Shown here piece after piece: positions 26,969-33,915 of a stretch of DNA of 64,000 bases. Every line of letters begins with the position of its first letter. The first letter of the stretch is position 1. Origin of the DNA: an uncultured Candidatus Rokubacteria bacterium (GTDB lineage Bacteria; Methylomirabilota; Methylomirabilia; Rokubacteriales; CSP1-6). The position numbers were made by a program, and so were the translations under genes. Under the pieces are notes generated by a model that saw only the letters and a list, made by a program, of their open reading frames with translations, did not search any database and was not told the origin of the DNA. Where the stretch lies: positions 1 through 64,000 of the forward strand of contig CAVVEU010000008.1 in NCBI GenBank assembly GCA_963747235.1, written 5' to 3'.

Positions 26969-27891
26969 TCGAGGCGCTTGAACTTCTGGAAGGACCGCAT
27001 CTCCCGCGGCGGCTTGAGGAACTGACCGTAGCCGGTGTAGGAGACCTCGCCCACGTAGACGTCCCCGTGCGAGTCCACCACGAGCCCGTGGGGCGCGATG
27101 AACTCGCCCGGCTTCTCGCTCGCGAACTGGCCGCCGAAGCGCGCCACCCGCTGGCCCTTGGCGTCGAGCACGCTGACCCGCGGGCCCAGGTTCGGCGTCT
27201 TCTCGGTGACCGGCATGCCGGAGCCGAGCTCGCCCACGAAGAAGAGCCCGCTCCTCGCGCGATCCACGAAGAGCCCGCAGGGGCGGTGGAGATTGTTCCA
27301 CGTGCCCTGGTGCTGCCCCTTGCCGTCGAAGATCTGCACGCGATGGTTCTCGCGGTCGGCCACGTAGACGAGGCCGTCGCGGTCGGTGACGAGATTGTGG
27401 GGCAGGTTGAACTGGCCGGGATCGGTGCCCGGCTCGCCCCACGACATGACGTACGTGCCGTCCGGCGCGTACTTGTGCACGCGCGAGTTGCCGTAGCCGT
27501 CGGAGACGAAGAGATAGCCGCTCTTCGGGCAGATCGCCACGTGGGTGGGCCGGTTGAACGGCTTGCCGCCCTGGAGCTCCGCCGCCTTGTCCGGATCGCC
27601 GATGGTCAGCAGCAGCTTGCCCTCCGGCGTGAACTTGCGGACGGTGTGGTGGAGATCGTCGGTGAGCCACACCATGTCGTCGGCGTCGATGGTGATGCCG
27701 TGGGCGCGGCGGACCACGCCCTCGCCCCACGAGCGGAGGAACTTCCCGTCCCGGTCGAACACGATGACCGGGTGCTCGCTCCGGGTGAAGCAGAAGACCC
27801 GGTCCTGCTTGTCCACCGCCGCGCCCGCCACTTCCTGGTAGCGCCAGCCCTCCGGCAGCGTGCCCCAGCCCTCGATGACCGAGAATTTCAT
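26965..27891 (-). CDS. NHL-repeat beta-propeller, peptidyl-alpha-hydroxyglycine alpha-amidating lyase family
   Basis: FNRPTHVA, SDGYGNSRV, PGQFNLPH, VADRENHRVQIFD and PHGLVVDS. Confidence 0.88.
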   Translation of the reverse strand: MKFSVIEGWGTLPEGWRYQEVAGAAVDKQDRVFCFTRSEHPVIVFDRDGKFLRSWGEGVVRRAHGITIDADDMVWLTDDLHHTVRKFTPEGKLLLTIGDPDKAAELQGGKPFNRPTHVAICPKSGYLFVSDGYGNSRVHKYAPDGTYVMSWGEPGTDPGQFNLPHNLVTDRDGLVYVADRENHRVQIFDGKGQHQGTWNNLHRPCGLFVDRARSGLFFVGELGSGMPVTEKTPNLGPRVSVLDAKGQRVARFGGQFASEKPGEFIAPHGLVVDSHGDVYVGEVSYTGYGQFLKPPREMRSFQKFKRLD

Positions 27892-28700
27892 TTCGACTCC
27901 TCGATGGCCTGGGCCATGCGCTCGAAGCGGCGCTTGAGCGGGGTCAGCCCTTCCTCGTGGGTGATGACGTAGAGGCGGTTGGCGTAGATGGCGCGCAGCA
28001 CGCGGGCGGCCACGTGCTCGGGCGGGAGATAGCGGCCGATCAGCTCCACCGCGCCGCCCTCGCGCTCCGTCATCGCGTTGCGGAGCGCGGCGGGCCGGTT
28101 CCGGTCGCTCTGCCGGATCTGGGTGTGCACGCCCATCGGACAGAGCACCGAGACGCCGATGTCGTAGCCGCGCAGATCCTTCTGCAGCGTCTCGGAGAGG
28201 CCGACGACCGCGTACTTGGTGGTGTTGTAGATGCCGAGCCCCTGCGAGGCGATGAGCCCGGCCATGGACGCGGTGTTCACCACGTGTCCCGGTTGCTTCT
28301 GGGCCACCATGCGCGGCACGAAGGCCTCCACGCCGTGGATGACGCCCCAGAGATTGACGCCCATCGCCCACTCCCAGTCCTTGTGGGTGACGGCCTCGAG
28401 CCCGCCCCAGAGGGCGACGCCCGCGTTGTTGCAGACCACGTGGACGGCGCCGAACTCGCCGAACGCGCGCTCCGCGAGAGCCTGCACGTCGGTGAGCCGG
28501 CTCACGTCGGTCTTCACGGCCAGGCCGCGGCGTCCCGCCTGGGTCACGCCGGCCACCGTCTCGGCCATGCCGGCCTCGTCGAGGTCGGCGACCACGACGT
28601 CGGCGCCCTCGCGGGCGAAGAGCAGCGAGAGCGCGCGTCCGATTCCGCTGGCGCCGCCGGTGACCACCGCGGTGCGGCCTTGCAGGCTGGTGAGAGGCAC
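27888..28700 (-). CDS. Short-chain dehydrogenase/reductase
   Basis: TGGASGIG, NNAG, NTASMAG and YNTTK. Confidence 0.93.
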   Translation of the reverse strand: MPLTSLQGRTAVVTGGASGIGRALSLLFAREGADVVVADLDEAGMAETVAGVTQAGRRGLAVKTDVSRLTDVQALAERAFGEFGAVHVVCNNAGVALWGGLEAVTHKDWEWAMGVNLWGVIHGVEAFVPRMVAQKQPGHVVNTASMAGLIASQGLGIYNTTKYAVVGLSETLQKDLRGYDIGVSVLCPMGVHTQIRQSDRNRPAALRNAMTEREGGAVELIGRYLPPEHVAARVLRAIYANRLYVITHEEGLTPLKRRFERMAQAIEESK

Positions 28701-28766
28701 GGCGCCGAGTGTCGCGCTCCCCGTCGCGTGCTGTCAACCACTTCTCTGCTTGGCGGTAGCGGGAGG

Positions 28767-28925
28767 CGGGTGCCGCGGCGCGGGGCGGGGGGCCCTCCCG
28801 GGGACACGCCGACTCGCGGCCCGCGTGGCCACTCGGTCGGGCCACGAGATGGGGGCGATACGCTTCGGCTACGCGCAGAAGACACGGTCCCCGGGAGGGC
28901 CCCCCGCCCCGCACCACGACACCCG
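28767..28925. repeat. About 160 bp palindromic element (MITE/REPIN-like or structured RNA)
   Basis: Arms 28767-28805 and 28887-28925 are reverse complements over 39 bp with 3 mismatches, all G.U-compatible on the minus strand. Confidence 0.8.
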
Positions 28926-28982
28926 ATCTCGCGGGGCGTGAGCGGAGTGAAAGGGATCGGCGGTCGGGTAGCATGTGGGCTT

Positions 28983-29742
28983 ATGGGTGAGCGGACGATC
29001 ACGATTGGGCGGCGGTTTCGGGGGCCGGATCTGGGTGGGGGGACCGGGAACGGTGGGTATGTGTGTGGGGTCGTGGCGCTGGCGGCGGGGCCGGGACCGC
29101 GTGGTGTCGAGATCAGGCGGGCGGCCGGGGTGCCGCTTGAGCGGCCGCTCGTCGTGCGCGTCGAGGAAGGGGACGCCGTGCTGTCCGATGACGAGGGGGT
29201 GATTGCGCGCACGACGTCGGCGGATCTGGCGGTCACGGCGCCGGCGCCGCCGGCGATCGACGTCGCCCGGCGGGTTTCCACCCGCTTTCTGGATCGGCTC
29301 GAGCGTGGGGAGGTCGGGCATACGTTTCCGGAGTGTTTTGTGTGTGGGCATCGGCGGGGGCCCGGGGATGGGTTGCGGGTTTTCGCGGGACCGGTTGATG
29401 GAGGGGCTCGGTGATGAGGCGGGGATGCGGGTCGGGGCGTGGCGGCCGGACGCGGCGTTCCTCGATGAGGCCGGGCGGCTGCGGCCGGAGTTCATCTGGT
29501 CGGCGCTGGACTGTCCGGGAGGGTGGGCGATCGCGGGGCCGGCCAATACCGGGACGCTGCAGGTGGAGATCCTCGGGCCGGTGGATGGACGCGAGGAGCT
29601 GATCGTGATGGGCTGGCCCATGACGGCCGATGCCGACCGGCCGGGGAGCCGGCGGCGGTACGCGGGGACGGCCATGTTCGACGCGCGCGGCCGGCTCCTG
29701 GCGCGCGGCGCGGCCATCTGGGTGGCCCCGCGGGCCACCTAG
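28983..29742 (+). CDS. Double-hotdog/thioesterase-like protein; frameshift near 29400
   Basis: RFRGP..GNGGYVCG, VPLERPL, FPECFVCG..R..GDGLRVFAGP, WSALDCPG and RRRYAGTA. Confidence 0.75.
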
Positions 29743-29760
29743 CGGTGGTATTCTTCGCGA

Positions 29761-32322
29761 ATGGATTATCGTCTCCCGGCCACCGTGGTGCCCTCGCGGT
29801 ACGATATCCGGCTCGAGCCGGACCTCGAGGCGGCGACCTTCGCGGGCGAGCAAACGGTCGCGATCACCGTGACGGAGCCGGTGACCGAGGTCGTCCTCAA
29901 CGCCGCCGAGCTCGCCATCCAGTCGGCGAGCGTGCTCACCGCCGACGGGATGACGGTCGAGGGGAGCGCGACGCTCGACGAGGCGGCCGAGCGGGCGCGC
30001 CTGCTCTTCCCGTCGCCGATCCCGGCGGGTGAGCACCGGCTGACGCTTCGCTTCACCGGCATCCTGAACGATCGCCTGCACGGCTTCTACCGCAGCACCT
30101 ACAAGGACGCTTCGGGCGCCTCTCACGTCATCGCGGCCACCCAGTTCGAGGCCACCGACGCGCGGCGCGGCTTCCCGTGCTGGGACGAGCCCGCGCTCAA
30201 GGCGGTGTTCGGGGTCACCCTGGTGGTGCCGGAAGGGCTCGCCGCGATCTCGAACACGCAGGTGGTCAGCGAAACGCCCACCGGCGCGGGTAAGAAGACG
30301 GTCGTCTTCGCCGACAGCATCCGCATGTCCACCTACCTCGTGGCGTTCGTGGTGGGCGAGCTCGAGGCGACGCCCCCGGTGATGGTCGGCCCGACCCCGC
30401 TGCGCGTGTGGTGCGTGCCGGGCAAGCTGCACCTCACCCGCTTCGCGCTCGAGATCGGCGCCTTCTCGCTCGACTACTTCGAGCGGTACTACGGGATGCC
30501 GTATCCGGGCGACAAGCTCGACATGCTGGCGATCCCCGACTTCGCGGCGGGCGCGATGGAGAACCTGGGCGCGATCACCTACCGGGAGACCGCCCTCCTG
30601 GTGGACGAGACGGCGGCCTCCCACACCGAGCGCGAGCGCGTGGCGGACGTGGTGGCCCACGAGGTCGCCCACATGTGGTTCGGCGATCTCGTGACCATGC
30701 TGTGGTGGAACGGGATCTGGCTGAACGAGGCGTTCGCCACCTTCATGGAGCTCCTGGCGGTGGACGCCTGGAAGCCCGAGTGGAAGCGGTGGACGACGTT
30801 CGGGGTGTCCCGGGCCGCCGCGATGGGCGTGGACGGCCTGCACAACACCCGGCCCATCGAGTTCGAGGTGCGGGCGCCGCGCGACTGCGAGGCGATGTTC
30901 GACCTGCTCACCTACGAGAAGGGCGGATCGGTCCTGCGCATGCTCGAGCAGTACCTGAGCGGCGAGATCTTCCGGGACGGGGTGCGGCTCTACCTCGAGC
31001 GGCATCGCTTCGGCAACGCCGAGACCACCGATCTCTGGAAGGCCCTCGGCGACGCCTCCCGCCTGCCGATCCCCGAGGTGATGAACGGGTGGATCTTCCG
31101 GCCGGGCTACCCGCTCGTGATCGTCGAGCCCGAGGGTGTCGGCGTCAAGCTGAGCCAGCGCCGCTTCACCTACCTGCCCAGCGAGGGCGCCGAGGCCGAG
31201 CGCTGGCAGATCCCGCTGCGGCTGCGCGCCTCGGTGAAGCGCGGCTTCGTGGACAAGCCGATCCTGCTCGGCAACGAGGATCTGTCCGTCCCGCTGCCCG
31301 CGGCTCCGGACTGGGTGGTGGCCAACGCGGGCGGGCACGGCTTCTATCGCGTGCAGTACGCCCCGCCGCTGCTCAAGAAGCTCACCGGGGCGCTCAAGAA
31401 GCTCGCGCCCATCGAGCGCTTCAACCTGGTCAGCGACGCCTTCGCGCTGACCCAGGCCGCGATGATGCCGGCGGCCGACTACCTCGATCTCACCGCGCGC
31501 TTCGTCGAGGAGACCGACCGCAACGTGTGGACCGCGCTGATCGGCTCGCTCGGCTACGTGAACCGGCTCATCGCGGACGACTCGCGCCCGCATCTGGAGG
31601 CGCTGGTGCGCCAGCGGGTCGAGGGGGCGGTGGAGCGGCTCGGCTGGGAGGTCCAGCCCGACGAGGACGAGCTCGAGCGGCAGCTACGCGGCGACCTGCT
31701 CCGCGCCCTCGGCACGCTCGGCAACGACCCGACCGCGCAGGACCGCGCCCGGGCGCTCTACGCGCGCTATCGCGAGGACGAGTCGGCGGTGGATGCCAAC
31801 GTGCTACCCGCCCTGATCGCGATCGTGGCCGCCGCGGGCGGGGAGACCGAGTACGAGGAGTTCCTCCAGCGCTTCAAGGCCGCCCGCACGCCGCAGGAGG
31901 AGCAGCGCTACCTCTACGCCCTCGCCGGGTTCCGGCAGCCCGAGCTGGTGCGGCGCACGCTCGAGAAGACCACCAACGGGGAAGTCCGCAGCCAGGACGC
32001 GCCCTTCCTGATGCGGTCGCTGCTGGTGGGCGTGCACAGCCGCGGGCTCGCGTGGGACTACGTCAAGGCGAACTGGCAGACGATGGCCCGGCAGTATCCG
32101 GGCAGCGCCTATCGCCGGTTGTACGAGGGCGTGACCGCGCTCGTCGGCCCGGAGTGGGAGCCGGACGTGAAGGCCTTCTTCGAGACGAACCGGATCGTGC
32201 TCGGCGGCAAGACGCTCGAGCAGTACCTCGAGCAGCTCCGGATCGCGGTACGGCTGCAGGAGCGCGAGGCGCCGGCTCTCGCCGCCTACCTCGCCAAGCC
32301 GCCTCGCGCCCCGCGTCGCTAG
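29761..32322 (+). CDS. pepN: M1-family zinc aminopeptidase (PepN/ERAP1-like)
   Basis: TQFEATDARR.FPCWDEP, GAMEN, HEVAH-x18-E (WLNEAFA) and YEKG. Confidence 0.95.
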   Translation: MDYRLPATVVPSRYDIRLEPDLEAATFAGEQTVAITVTEPVTEVVLNAAELAIQSASVLTADGMTVEGSATLDEAAERARLLFPSPIPAGEHRLTLRFTGILNDRLHGFYRSTYKDASGASHVIAATQFEATDARRGFPCWDEPALKAVFGVTLVVPEGLAAISNTQVVSETPTGAGKKTVVFADSIRMSTYLVAFVVGELEATPPVMVGPTPLRVWCVPGKLHLTRFALEIGAFSLDYFERYYGMPYPGDKLDMLAIPDFAAGAMENLGAITYRETALLVDETAASHTERERVADVVAHEVAHMWFGDLVTMLWWNGIWLNEAFATFMELLAVDAWKPEWKRWTTFGVSRAAAMGVDGLHNTRPIEFEVRAPRDCEAMFDLLTYEKGGSVLRMLEQYLSGEIFRDGVRLYLERHRFGNAETTDLWKALGDASRLPIPEVMNGWIFRPGYPLVIVEPEGVGVKLSQRRFTYLPSEGAEAERWQIPLRLRASVKRGFVDKPILLGNEDLSVPLPAAPDWVVANAGGHGFYRVQYAPPLLKKLTGALKKLAPIERFNLVSDAFALTQAAMMPAADYLDLTARFVEETDRNVWTALIGSLGYVNRLIADDSRPHLEALVRQRVEGAVERLGWEVQPDEDELERQLRGDLLRALGTLGNDPTAQDRARALYARYREDESAVDANVLPALIAIVAAAGGETEYEEFLQRFKAARTPQEEQRYLYALAGFRQPELVRRTLEKTTNGEVRSQDAPFLMRSLLVGVHSRGLAWDYVKANWQTMARQYPGSAYRRLYEGVTALVGPEWEPDVKAFFETNRIVLGGKTLEQYLEQLRIAVRLQEREAPALAAYLAKPPRAPRR

Positions 32323-33646: not shown

Positions 33647-33731
33647 CGCCATAGGCAGTGGCAGTAGAAGTAGAGCAGTGAAAGTGGAAACGGAGCGAAG
33701 GGCGGTGCGCGCCAGGACTTCGCCAAGTGCC

Positions 33732-33897
33732 GGCGGGGTGCGGGGCCGGGGTGGCGGGGGTGCGGCCGGGTGACCCGTTCCCCGCCAAGGGGAGCGGCGC
33801 CGCCCCATCCCGGATTGGGAACTCCTCACGCAAGAAGCCGACACAGCGGGTCGTGGTCAGAGGCCGCGCCCCCGCCACCCCGGCCCCGCACCCCGCC
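33732..33897. repeat. About 165 bp palindromic element (MITE/REPIN-like)
   Basis: Arms 33732-33767 and 33862-33897 are reverse complements over 36 bp with 1 mismatch; lies between convergent genes; shares GGTGCGGGGC with the 28767 element. Confidence 0.8.
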
Positions 33898-33915
33898 CGA
33901 CGGTCGAGCCAAGAG

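Follow-up and report, generated by a model that had tools for sequence, protein, structure and literature searches.

Long-stem hairpin repeats of a Rokubacteria lineage adjoin one-sided cytosine-poor zones

In the window, a stretch of 64,000 nucleotides from an uncultured Candidatus Rokubacteria bacterium (contig CAVVEU010000008.1 of assembly GCA_963747235.1), a thioesterase-like ('hotdog') gene located beside a long palindrome has lost cytosine on one strand. The palindrome belongs to one of two families of long-stem hairpin repeats, A and B, which appear to be related to each other and specific to this lineage, and one-sided skew recurs around such elements in 20 other genomes. The asymmetry tracks the orientation of the element and not the direction of the gene residing there. 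The association between element and zone is strong; the mechanism behind it is unproven. In the literature listings and abstracts searched, we found no account of skew zones anchored by hairpin repeats in bacteria or of these elements, nor an earlier description of a repeat coupled in this way to changes in the sequence around it. The layout of the locus is given in Table 1.

Table 1. Features at the hotdog locus and the second hairpin repeat of the window
Feature	Coordinates	Strand	Remarks
Short-chain dehydrogenase (SDR) gene	27888..28700	-	left neighbour, transcribed away from the element; Pfam adh_short, E 4e-46
Family A long-stem hairpin repeat	28765..28918	+	arms G-rich (left) and C-rich (right), around a conserved core of ~80 nt
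C-poor, G-/T-rich zone	28925..29800	+	from 150-nt skew profile and codon statistics of N and C parts
Possible -10 box TAGCAT	28970..28975	+	ends 7 nt upstream of the ATG, which would make the start leaderless; read from the sequence only
Thioesterase-like ('hotdog') gene, ~252 codons	28983..29742	+	holds the C-poor synonymous sites
M1 aminopeptidase gene (pepN)	29761..32322	+	right neighbour, normal composition; Pfam Peptidase_M1, E 7e-74
Family B hairpin repeat, second element of the window	33730..33899	-	hairpin scan: arm 38, loop 94

The sequence-only reading of this locus had counted by hand about 28 C-ending codons among the first 143 of the hotdog gene and no GGC among about 25 glycine codons. 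Both counts are correct: 28 of codons 1-143 (28983-29411) end in C, and the 25 glycine codons are 18 GGG, 4 GGT and 3 GGA. The third positions of this part are C 0.196, G 0.573, T 0.203 and A 0.028. C-ending codons were rightly described as the preference elsewhere, with genome-wide shares of 61% for GGC, 96% for TTC, 87% for TAC, 89% for TGC and 77% for GAC, and the motifs named as conserved are all present in the hotdog gene (GNGGYVCG, ECFVCG and LDCPGG). The GC skew rises to +0.52 at 28925-29074 and remains positive as far as about 29750; in each of the two flanking genes it is about 0. The zone has two peaks, 28925-29150 and 29300-29525, and fades at the start of pepN, a gene with G/(G+C) of 0.49-0.53 and T/(T+C) of 0.07-0.09. 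Among 55,357 windows of 500 nucleotides, the hotdog region ranks third of the eight regions with an absolute skew above 0.28, the two highest being the tuf copies. Its four-fold G/(G+C), 0.75, is reached by 5 of 3850 genes from a crude ORF calling and its two-fold pyrimidine T/(T+C), 0.51, by one of them; none of the other approximately 3850 ORF-called genes attains both. The weaker form of the same loss that had been read into the start of the SDR gene did not hold up, since the four-fold G/(G+C) of this gene is 0.35, against 0.35-0.38 in close and 0.37-0.45 in distant relatives.

The hotdog gene shifts frame near 29405 in the assembly, a point absent from the sequence-only reading. All three contigs covering this point, from runs X1, X2 and X4, one of which may be the window's own sample, have one base fewer at 29403/29407; thus, the frameshift is an assembly error, with one extra G at 29403-29407. 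Apart from the missing base, short-read contigs of X4 are identical to 29018-29268 and 29279-29664, with 0 substitutions. Among the sequencing runs listed as containing this stretch, none is recorded as RNA. Orthologs have a single reading frame of 252-256 amino acids, and the gene is intact and under purifying selection. Its product has no match in Pfam, NCBIfam or the PDB sequences; the nearest ESM-Atlas clusters (score 0.96) are named PaaI/thioesterase, with 4HBT on 11% of the members, which is a lead only, and an AlphaFold model from 8 sequences (pLDDT 46.6) is too poor for a fold search. Orthologs carry TAGGAT, TAGCAT or TAACAT at the position matching the possible -10 box, and a consensus scan around this box found no sigma-70-type site. 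An open reading frame of 289 amino acids lies antisense to the gene, at 28869-29738.

The palindrome reported earlier is real, with arms of 39 nucleotides (28767-28805 and 28887-28925) that are 92% complementary, and the family A hairpin folds at -135 kcal/mol (z -7.0). Family A has eight copies in the genome according to nhmmer, the palindrome among them, and family B has twelve; both families are present in all 21 genomes of the genus. Elements are about 150-190 nucleotides long, with arms of 24-48, loops of 79-122 and a core of 80-100 nucleotides. Compensatory changes were found in 23 of 42 stem pairs across 19 copies, in which the arms vary and the core is conserved, and stems kept in this way show that the elements are under selection. 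Seven of the eight family A copies in this genome follow directly on the 3' end of a gene that shares their orientation. Between genomes, A and B alternate at the same intergenic sites, namely the hotdog locus and the site upstream of queA, where B occupies 4 loci and A another 7, with no element detected in the remaining 6. The core of the second element of the window is inverted compared to three relatives at what appears to be the same site, as judged from the strand of the match relative to the hotdog gene.

Rfam 15 at gathering scores had no match in the whole window, and a comparison of 28500-29900 at E<=1 yielded a single snoRNA match at chance level. A scan of 28600-29100 for hairpins with loops of 3-8 nucleotides found no terminator-like site and no U-tract terminator, and a consensus scan found no promoter-like site in or beside the element. 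Nicking of the HUH/RAYT type, which the sequence-only reading had proposed as one way of exposing a strand, was not borne out: there was no match to Y1_Tnp, the HUH transposase (PF01797), in the 88%-complete assembly, the search covering all but 16,000 bases of it, with a control that was positive in 6 of 14 known genomes. Reverse transcriptase (RVT_1, PF00078) likewise had no match in the assembly.

The order SDR gene, hotdog gene and pepN is conserved at all orthologous loci, and the hotdog gene is vertically related. Codon usage is normal in the syntenic orthologs of more distant relatives, and the bias in the window's gene is therefore derived. At 68 ancestral C synonymous third positions (C in at least five of six distant orthologs), the window has C at 28, G at 23, T at 16 and A at 1, and at 43 ancestral G third positions (six distant orthologs) it has G at 38 and C at 5. 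Codon positions 1 and 2 changed in the same direction, with C>G at 14 of 72 versus G>C at 7 of 102, and C>G at 11 of 70 versus G>C at 4 of 60. Sequence context was weakly informative, C after G being least retained (0.18). In the N part, T/(T+C) is 0.27-0.69 in 12 orthologous sequences whose element site is occupied by an element or a remnant or falls in a gap, 0.19-0.21 in three close relatives without element and 0.03-0.12 in 25 distant orthologs without element; identical codon usage in element-free orthologs, an outcome that would have refuted the sequence-only reading, was thus not seen in the distant ones. The three close relatives still have an intermediate bias, with G/(G+C) of 0.58-0.66, and by similarity of the hotdog gene they represent only two independent lineages. 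Three independent losses of the element, as suggested by a tree of the flanks, were rejected because the gene's own similarities point to two lineages plus recombination.

In pairs with the window's sequence, nucleotide identity of the hotdog gene is 72-85%, compared to 91-94% for the flanks. A far faster evolution of the gene was nevertheless rejected, since in 10 of 11 pairs its four-fold sites have diverged only 0.6-2.0 times as much as those of the flanking genes. Most of the excess comes from amino-acid changes (differences at positions 1+2 of 0.07-0.15 versus 0.01-0.035). The exceptional pair, with a 7.5-fold four-fold divergence, looks like an allele brought in by recombination. Thus, of the mutagenesis zone proposed earlier, a localised substitution bias stands, but not a strong hypermutation with a large increase in rate.

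Beyond this locus, 7 of the 17 strongest G+T-rich patches of the genome adjoin a family A or B hairpin, and in these seven the hairpin is always 5' of the G-rich strand and the patch on one constant side of the element core. Besides the two tuf copies, four of the six strongest 500-nucleotide skew regions adjoin an element. Zones extend 300-800 nucleotides from the element, with a fairly constant 300-450 in averaged bins. In other genomes, the 150-nucleotide bins downstream of family B have mean skews of +0.13, +0.18 and +0.11, then 0, and the second bin exceeds 0.15 in 18 of 26 cases, a value that neither of the two upstream bins closest to the element exceeds in any case (0 of 26-27); the downstream bins of family A have +0.12 and +0.09. 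Positive skew is absent from the upstream flanks of elements in general. Paired comparison of 450 nucleotides downstream with 450 upstream gave C -6.3 and G +5.5 points for family B (n=22) and C -3.4 and G +2.1 points for family A (n=18). The downstream side has the higher skew in 21 of 22 B elements and in 14 of 18 A elements, 40 elements of other genomes in all, with p-values that overstate the significance because the relatives are not independent. T does not change on average across these elements (+0.5 points, p 0.6), and G+C content is hardly lower downstream (0.696 versus 0.704). The enrichment of skew patches over random expected by the sequence-only reading was found: 23 of 38 B elements exceed 0.15, compared to 1.2% of 20,000 random windows.

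Enrichment of T is special to the hotdog locus and queA, the loci of the latter having TA skews of +0.14 to +0.36. The 5' part of queA is GC-skewed in 17 of 17 loci (+0.12 to +0.35), including the six without a detected element, several of which end in C-rich arm-like sequence and may therefore hold undetected elements. Genes for MoeA and an ABC permease, assigned with Pfam, run towards the element, and their last 150 codons are the mirror image, with four-fold C:G of 69:24 and 67:23, compared to 50:41 and 41:53 in the rest of the genes. A general effect of gene 5' ends was not seen, none of 1969 gene starts exceeding 0.2. G-quadruplex motifs occur on the G-rich strand at 0.78/kb downstream (7 motifs in 9 kb), with none upstream and 0.086/kb genome-wide. 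Three of the twelve family B copies in the genome have no zone; among them is the second element of the window, with downstream bins of 0.00, +0.11, 0.00 and -0.18.

These conclusions rest on GC skew and synonymous-site counts, which were used because membrane proteins, for example the C33 and C40 permeases, confound a scan for G+T ('keto') skew. Inference of the strand from GC1/GC2/GC3 in 69 downstream zones was wrong for the hotdog gene and queA, and therefore Pfam-verified genes were used instead. The zones C22 and C24-769, whose candidate ORFs have no Pfam match, have a strand assigned from ORF composition only and were left out of the verified set.

As an explanation we tentatively lean, with less than even confidence, towards a directional substitution bias of mutational origin that is anchored by the element and would act through a single-stranded state of the G-rich strand, most likely by way of transcription and R-loops. 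Each element marks the beginning of a zone of 300-800 nucleotides on one constant side of its core, in which the strand running 5' to 3' away from the element has exchanged C for G, and here and at queA also for T. A one-directional process that starts at or crosses the element might expose the G-rich strand as single strand more often. Its likeliest source would be transcription that leaves the element, the G clusters of the arm acting as seeds for R-loops; the exposed strand would then lose cytosines preferentially, and the enrichment of G might in turn promote more R-loops. The hotdog gene would merely be DNA inside the zone, and since it is under purifying selection most changes are at synonymous sites. 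PMC10030826 describes non-template DNA as more prone to cytosine deamination, which explains strand asymmetry, and R-loops as favoured by GC skew.

Plain cytosine deamination is not sufficient, since in general C is replaced by G without a gain of T. Simple deamination would raise T and lower G+C, and an extra assumption is therefore needed: C>T changes may be purged by whatever holds GC3 at about 90%, or the lesion may be bypassed as C>G. The signature of C-to-T plus C-to-G from which the sequence-only reading had argued applies to the hotdog locus but not to the elements in general. Its notion of an element-tied, strand-specific C-poor zone is upheld by the side-fixed skew at repeats across genomes and by the finding that no resident gene explains the zone, but this does not extend to the single-strand cause. 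It might also be that the hairpins are active elements which direct changes to one strand and one side of the adjoining 300-800 bases, for example if a promoter or nick site within the element attracted a process that is error-prone or specific for C; we consider this unlikely.

Selection could produce the same composition if a C-poor, G-rich tract were a working part of the element, either for escape from Rho, which binds C-rich, G-poor RNA, or as a G-rich pause or R-loop tract that completes a terminator or insulator. The general exchange of C for G with G+C content kept and no gain of T, the fairly constant zone length of 300-450 nucleotides, the terminator-like place of the family A copies and the stems preserved by compensatory change are consistent with this. 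However, the zone crosses the coding sequence of unrelated genes whichever way these are oriented and alters codon positions 1 and 2 as well, the C>T changes at two-fold sites of the hotdog locus run against the GC3 preference and look like loss of C, not gain of G, and the scan detected no U-tract terminator. We therefore regard selection as doubtful, although it deserves serious consideration. The causality might also be reversed, such that elements insert or survive beside DNA that already has a positive skew, for instance because it is more often single-stranded. The alternation of A and B at the same sites suggests hot spots, queA is skewed also where no element was detected, and the close relatives without element at the hotdog locus retain part of the bias. 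Against this, few skewed sites are free of elements among the strongest non-tuf regions, distant orthologs without element are normal, T bias is stronger in the hotdog-locus sequences with an element, and several queA loci may hold elements that escaped detection; a reversed causality is thus rather improbable.

Explanations confined to the one gene, whether horizontal transfer from a donor of different codon usage, an adaptation to strong expression or a second gene overlapping in antisense, are largely refuted by the multi-locus data and retain very little probability. The skew does begin near the start of the hotdog gene and fade near its stop, tuf likewise prefers G-ending four-fold codons (G/(G+C) 0.93), and there is the antisense ORF. 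But conserved synteny speaks for a vertical relationship, tuf retains C at two-fold sites (TTC 12 of 14, GAC 21 of 26), unlike the hotdog gene, the conserved product is the one of the plus strand, and similar skew lies beside about 40 other elements, in unrelated genes of both orientations. An artefact that arose in sequencing or assembly because the region is G-rich and prone to structure would fit the spurious extra G and the two frame changes in the skewed part of queA. As regards base composition it is refuted and has next to no probability, only the indel being an artefact: the X4 contigs match without substitutions, the trend is repeated at the hotdog gene in other assemblies and metagenome contigs, and the changes respect codon structure.

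The zones resemble, by their sequence composition, the strand asymmetry and R-loop zones of human gene 5' ends, CpG-island promoters and immunoglobulin switch regions: from a defined start onwards, one strand has more G than C for hundreds of bases, an excess that fades with distance, and this strand also carries the G clusters and G-quadruplex motifs. The deamination component of such zones, T over A, is present at the hotdog locus (T3 0.20) and queA and absent on average over the 40 elements. R-loop zones are anchored by a gene promoter, whereas here the anchor is a bacterial hairpin repeat and the direction of the resident gene is ignored. REP/BIME sequences with RAYT are also multi-copy intergenic palindromes, often located after genes and foldable as single strands. 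REPs, however, are much shorter, with units of tens of bases, and the elements here have 150-190 nucleotides with a core of 80-100, and no Y1_Tnp gene was found in the 88%-complete assembly; we know of no effect of REPs on flanking composition.

Kataegis by AID/APOBEC shares strand-coordinated C>T plus C>G with the hotdog locus only, and it is a burst, whereas the shift in composition seen here is evolutionary, with modest four-fold divergence and elsewhere C>G only. In diversity-generating retroelements (DGR), a DNA hairpin likewise lies beside a gene stretch with base-specific change. There the hairpin beside the variable region helps targeting, the change is adenine-templated, and a reverse transcriptase and a template repeat are needed; here C is lost, no RVT_1 was found in the assembly, and housekeeping genes, queA and moeA, are affected. 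MITE-type transposons have conserved terminal inverted repeats, whereas here the arms vary with pairing kept and the core is conserved. An intrinsic terminator combines a G+C-rich hairpin with a run of T, which the scan of 28600-29100 did not detect at loops of 3-8 nucleotides.

In bacteria, horizontal transfer, the level of expression and the replication strand are the usual explanations of local composition and codon usage. In the present case the predictor is a repeated non-coding element, next to which, with fixed polarity, a zone trades C for G and sometimes T on one strand through any resident gene. If the origin is mutational, the elements would serve as natural markers for a process that acts on DNA in one direction in an uncultured phylum of the soil, and each genome would offer dozens of replicated natural experiments on transcription- or structure-driven mutation in bacteria. 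If selection is responsible, the zones would be a new composite signal made of a hairpin and a C-poor tract. Active elements would represent a bacterial counterpart of targeted hypermutation or switch-region biology, reshaping host genes wherever an element lands. The zones distort inference of gene transfer or expression from codon usage. In addition, their G runs attract homopolymer errors that break assembled genes, as in the hotdog gene and probably in queA with its two frame changes in this assembly.

The gene with the C-poor synonymous sites, referred to here as the hotdog gene, is located between a family A inverted repeat and an aminopeptidase gene (table below), and the order dehydrogenase, hotdog gene, aminopeptidase is the same at every orthologous locus detected within the genus. 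The window is positions 1-64000 of contig C8 in a genome assembly (G000) that comprises 5.57 Mb in 42 contigs, is 88% complete and has approximately 71% G+C. The name hotdog, given in the sequence-only reading, is plausible: the clusters nearest to the product in a language-model look-up, which serves as a lead only, are named PaaI/thioesterase, but Pfam, NCBIfam and PDB-sequence searches returned no match. In the window the reading frame shifts near 29405, and the orthologs consist of a single frame of 252-256 codons. The gene is intact and the extra G is an assembly error, since a base is missing at 29403/29407 in all three covering contigs, which stem from three public sequencing runs, one of them possibly the window's own sample; with the same caveat, these other data confirm the odd base composition, the contigs of run X4 agreeing with the window over 29018-29268 and 29279-29664 without substitution.

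Features of the locus and its surroundings
Feature	Position	Strand	Remarks
Short-chain dehydrogenase gene	27888-28700	-	left neighbour of palindrome
Family A inverted repeat, 154 nt	28765-28918		arms 39 nt, 92% complementary, 81 nt apart
Hotdog gene	start ATG 28983	+	between inverted repeat and aminopeptidase gene
M1 aminopeptidase gene (pepN)	29761-32322	+	right neighbour of hotdog gene
Family B copy	33730-33899		from the hairpin scan

The divergent dehydrogenase and hotdog genes both seem to be leaderless (28700-28745 and 28965-28985). A perfect TTGACA is found on the minus strand 35 nt upstream of the dehydrogenase GTG and is conserved in the orthologous loci compared; TAGCAT is located 7 nt before ATG 28983, and similar hexamers precede the ATG in the closer orthologous loci.

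That the compositional bias is real is virtually certain. The earlier codon counts proved exact: among the first 143 codons, 28 have C in third position and none is GGC, the Gly codons being GGG (18), GGT (4) and GGA (3), and third-position T amounts to 0.20. Genome-wide, GGC (61%), TTC (96%), TGC (89%) and GAC (77%) are preferred. The gene has a four-fold G/(G+C) of 0.75, reached by five of approximately 3850 genes called with a crude ORF caller, and a two-fold pyrimidine T/(T+C) of 0.51, reached by one; both values together are reached by none. The first 143 codons (N part) show 0.78 and 0.69, respectively, the last 108 codons (C part) 0.70 and 0.26. GC skew in 150-nt windows is +0.52 directly right of the palindrome, peaks again at 29300-29449 (+0.49), is down to 0 at about 29750-29800 and stays near 0 in both neighbour genes. 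The weaker effect proposed for the dehydrogenase gene on the left is not real, as its C preference is common to the orthologs (0.35-0.45) and the plus strand has a skew of about 0 in this gene.

Comparison with orthologs indicates that the bias is derived and not inherited from a donor. Six more distant orthologs are ordinary in the N part (G/(G+C) 0.42-0.50, T/(T+C) 0.03-0.10), and four closer ones have intermediate codon usage. Compared with the distant group, the window now has C (28), G (23), T (16) or A (1) at the 68 synonymous third positions where C is ancestral, and G (38) or C (5) at the 43 where G is ancestral; this polarity presumes that the distant group represents the ancestral state, an unproven assumption that fits the group's genome-typical composition. 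Codon positions 1 and 2 changed in the same direction, and thus selection on codon choice alone does not explain the bias. Thirty-two closer orthologs were found on metagenome contigs (best-segment identity 58-85%). The comparison of orthologs with and without the element, proposed in the sequence-only reading, showed that distant orthologs lacking it have normal codon usage: N-part T/(T+C) is 0.03-0.12 in 25 of these, 0.19-0.21 in three close relatives without the element and 0.27-0.69 in 12 sequences, several of them near-duplicates, whose site holds an element, a remnant of one or, in a single case, an assembly gap. Four-fold divergence of the gene is 0.6-2.0 times that of the flanks in 10 of 11 pairs, which argues for a bias and not for strong hypermutation. 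Positions 1+2 diverge by 0.07-0.15 in the gene versus 0.01-0.035 in the flanks, and the low overall identity of the gene is due to this faster amino-acid change. In the distant metagenome orthologs L074 and L075, T/(T+C) has a normal value in the N part (0.10) and counts 0.64-0.70 in the C part; L075 has an internal stop, and the C-part values may reflect a frame problem from fixed slicing.

The palindrome is indeed an element, being one of exactly eight family A copies that BLAST and an nhmmer profile detected in the assembly. Alignment of 19 copies from 17 genomes revealed an invariant core, ACACGCTGA.TCGC, GCCACGAGA and CGCAGAAGACACGG, and a long outer stem that is sequence-variable yet paired, with compensatory changes in 23 of 42 predicted pairs. 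Seven of the eight copies directly follow the 3' end of a co-oriented gene, the exception being the window's copy between divergent genes. A genome-wide scan (234 hairpins with arms of at least 20 nt) yielded the 12 long hairpins of family B, with arms of 24-48 nt, loops of 79-122 nt and a conserved core unlike that of family A (CTCTGACCACGAC, GGAGTTCCCAATCCGGG and GGCGGGGAACGGGTCA). Each family is present in all 21 searched genomes of the genus, family B also in 3 of 39 other genera of the family, and neither has a match in Rfam. Literature searches, at the level of listings and abstracts, found no description of these elements or of bacterial skew zones anchored at hairpin repeats; the nearest known phenomena are REP-type repeats as well as transcription-associated strand asymmetry and GC-skew/R-loop zones, described mostly in eukaryotes.

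The same intergenic sites are occupied by A or by B, depending on the genome. The hotdog locus has family A in the window and a family B remnant in a metagenome locus (L041:1330-1480), and at the site upstream of queA (loci L262-L280) B was detected in four loci, A in seven and neither in six, a pattern suggestive of exchanged cores or of repeated insertion at hot spots. Elements replacing each other have similar G-rich left arms. The core of the window's family B copy is inverted relative to three relatives (G020, G014, G005) at apparently the same site after pepN; their copies have a skew zone on the right, with first-bin values of +0.23, +0.33 and +0.46, and neither side of the window's copy shows a clear zone. 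Recombination between the arms could have flipped the core.

A link between the bias and the elements is very likely. Seven of the 17 strongest G+T-rich patches of the genome adjoin a family A or B element, which in all seven is 5' of the G-rich strand once the core is set in one orientation, and the genes in the zones are unrelated (queA, a 4HBT_3 thioesterase, an amidase-like ORF, permeases, moeA). At 28 family B loci from 20 other genomes, mean skew in the downstream 150-nt bins is +0.13, +0.18 and +0.11 (p 5e-5, 1e-7 and 2e-5, values that overstate significance because genomes of one genus are related) and returns to 0 past 450 nt; the second downstream bin exceeds 0.15 in 18 of 26, the two nearest upstream bins in 0 of 26-27. 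Family A has a weaker and shorter effect (+0.12 and +0.09; 28 loci). Paired over 450 nt, downstream sequence has 6.3 points less C and 5.5 points more G than upstream sequence for family B (n=22), 3.4 less and 2.1 more for family A (n=18), and the downstream GC skew is higher in 21/22 and 14/18, respectively. The enrichment near palindromes that had been anticipated was found: including the copies of this genome, 23/38 family B and 5/31 family A zones exceed 0.15, compared with 1.2% of 20,000 random 390-nt windows. Gene starts in general are not skewed (0/1969 exceed 0.2), and 3 of 12 family B copies in the genome, the window's among them, show no zone. G-quadruplex motifs are in 9-fold excess on the G-rich strand of the zones (7 in 9 kb).

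The closest parallel to the hotdog gene is the 4HBT_3 acyl-CoA thioesterase gene (C33:75877-76733) directly downstream of a family B element, which has the lowest third-position C among called genes (0.23) and an out-of-frame C-terminus. queA (C24:755014-756051) changes frame twice within its G/T-rich first 380 nt; the extra G proven for the hotdog gene makes homopolymer errors in G runs the probable cause.

The hotdog gene, queA, the 4HBT_3 thioesterase gene and one permease gene are co-oriented with their zone. The Pfam-verified moeA (C8:612693-613574) and ABC permease (C4:111658-112488) genes run towards their own element and present the mirror image, with four-fold C:G of 69:24 in the last 150 codons versus 50:41 in the rest of moeA, and of 67:23 versus 41:53 in the permease gene. 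The zone is oriented with the element and not with the gene, and given this mirror image neither translational codon selection nor sense transcription of the resident gene can be a general cause. Gene-specific explanations are essentially excluded, as is an artefact. The element-free orthologs fall into two lineages by the gene's own similarities, so that only two independent contrasts exist, both in the expected direction; three independent losses, as read from the flank tree, were rejected on these similarities, and the allele L046/L047 (metagenome loci) was probably imported by recombination. Insertion of the element beside DNA that was already skewed is improbable. A C-poor tract selected for Rho evasion or as a terminator module is rather unlikely; no U-tract terminator was found at the window's element.

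We lean slightly towards a mutational cause. A directional process anchored at the element would leave the later G-rich strand preferentially exposed or miscopied over a few hundred bases. Replication stalling would be expected to expose DNA 5' of the hairpin in the template strand, a geometry that appears opposite to that needed for cytosine loss. One possible form, which we favour only tentatively, is transcription that leaves or crosses the element while G clusters in its arm seed R-loops. Transcription with R-loops would fit the polarity, as the C-poor strand would be the non-template strand, the length of the zones and the quadruplex excess on that strand; it would also fit the established link, stated in PMC10030826, that ties cytosine loss, GC skew and R-loops to single-stranded non-template DNA. 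A sigma-70-type promoter was not found at the window's element. The proposed signature of C-to-T plus C-to-G holds at the hotdog locus, but the general exchange is C for G: zones in other genomes show no rise in T and hardly any change in G+C content, the C-to-T component being particular to the hotdog locus and queA. The absent T gain needs an extra assumption, namely that C>T changes would be purged (GC3 near 90%) or abasic sites bypassed as C>G. For the suggested RAYT/TnpA(Y1) nicking, no Y1 transposase was found in the 88%-complete assembly, nor was a reverse transcriptase. A dedicated element-directed process is unlikely.

Two adjoining ORFs at C18:16500-19174, neither of them next to a family A or B element, are strong composition outliers: one is integron-integrase-like with C-rich third positions (G/(G+C) 0.29), the other is proline-iminopeptidase-like and T-rich in third position (T3 0.27). 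GC skew in the genome is strongest at the two tuf copies outside the window (C24:128606-129820 and 144584-145798). Their four-fold codons nearly all end in G (GGG 30/37 Gly, CGG 24/24 Arg, ACG 26/26 Thr; G/(G+C) 0.93) and C is retained at two-fold sites; GGG as the chief Gly codon of EF-Tu is unusual.
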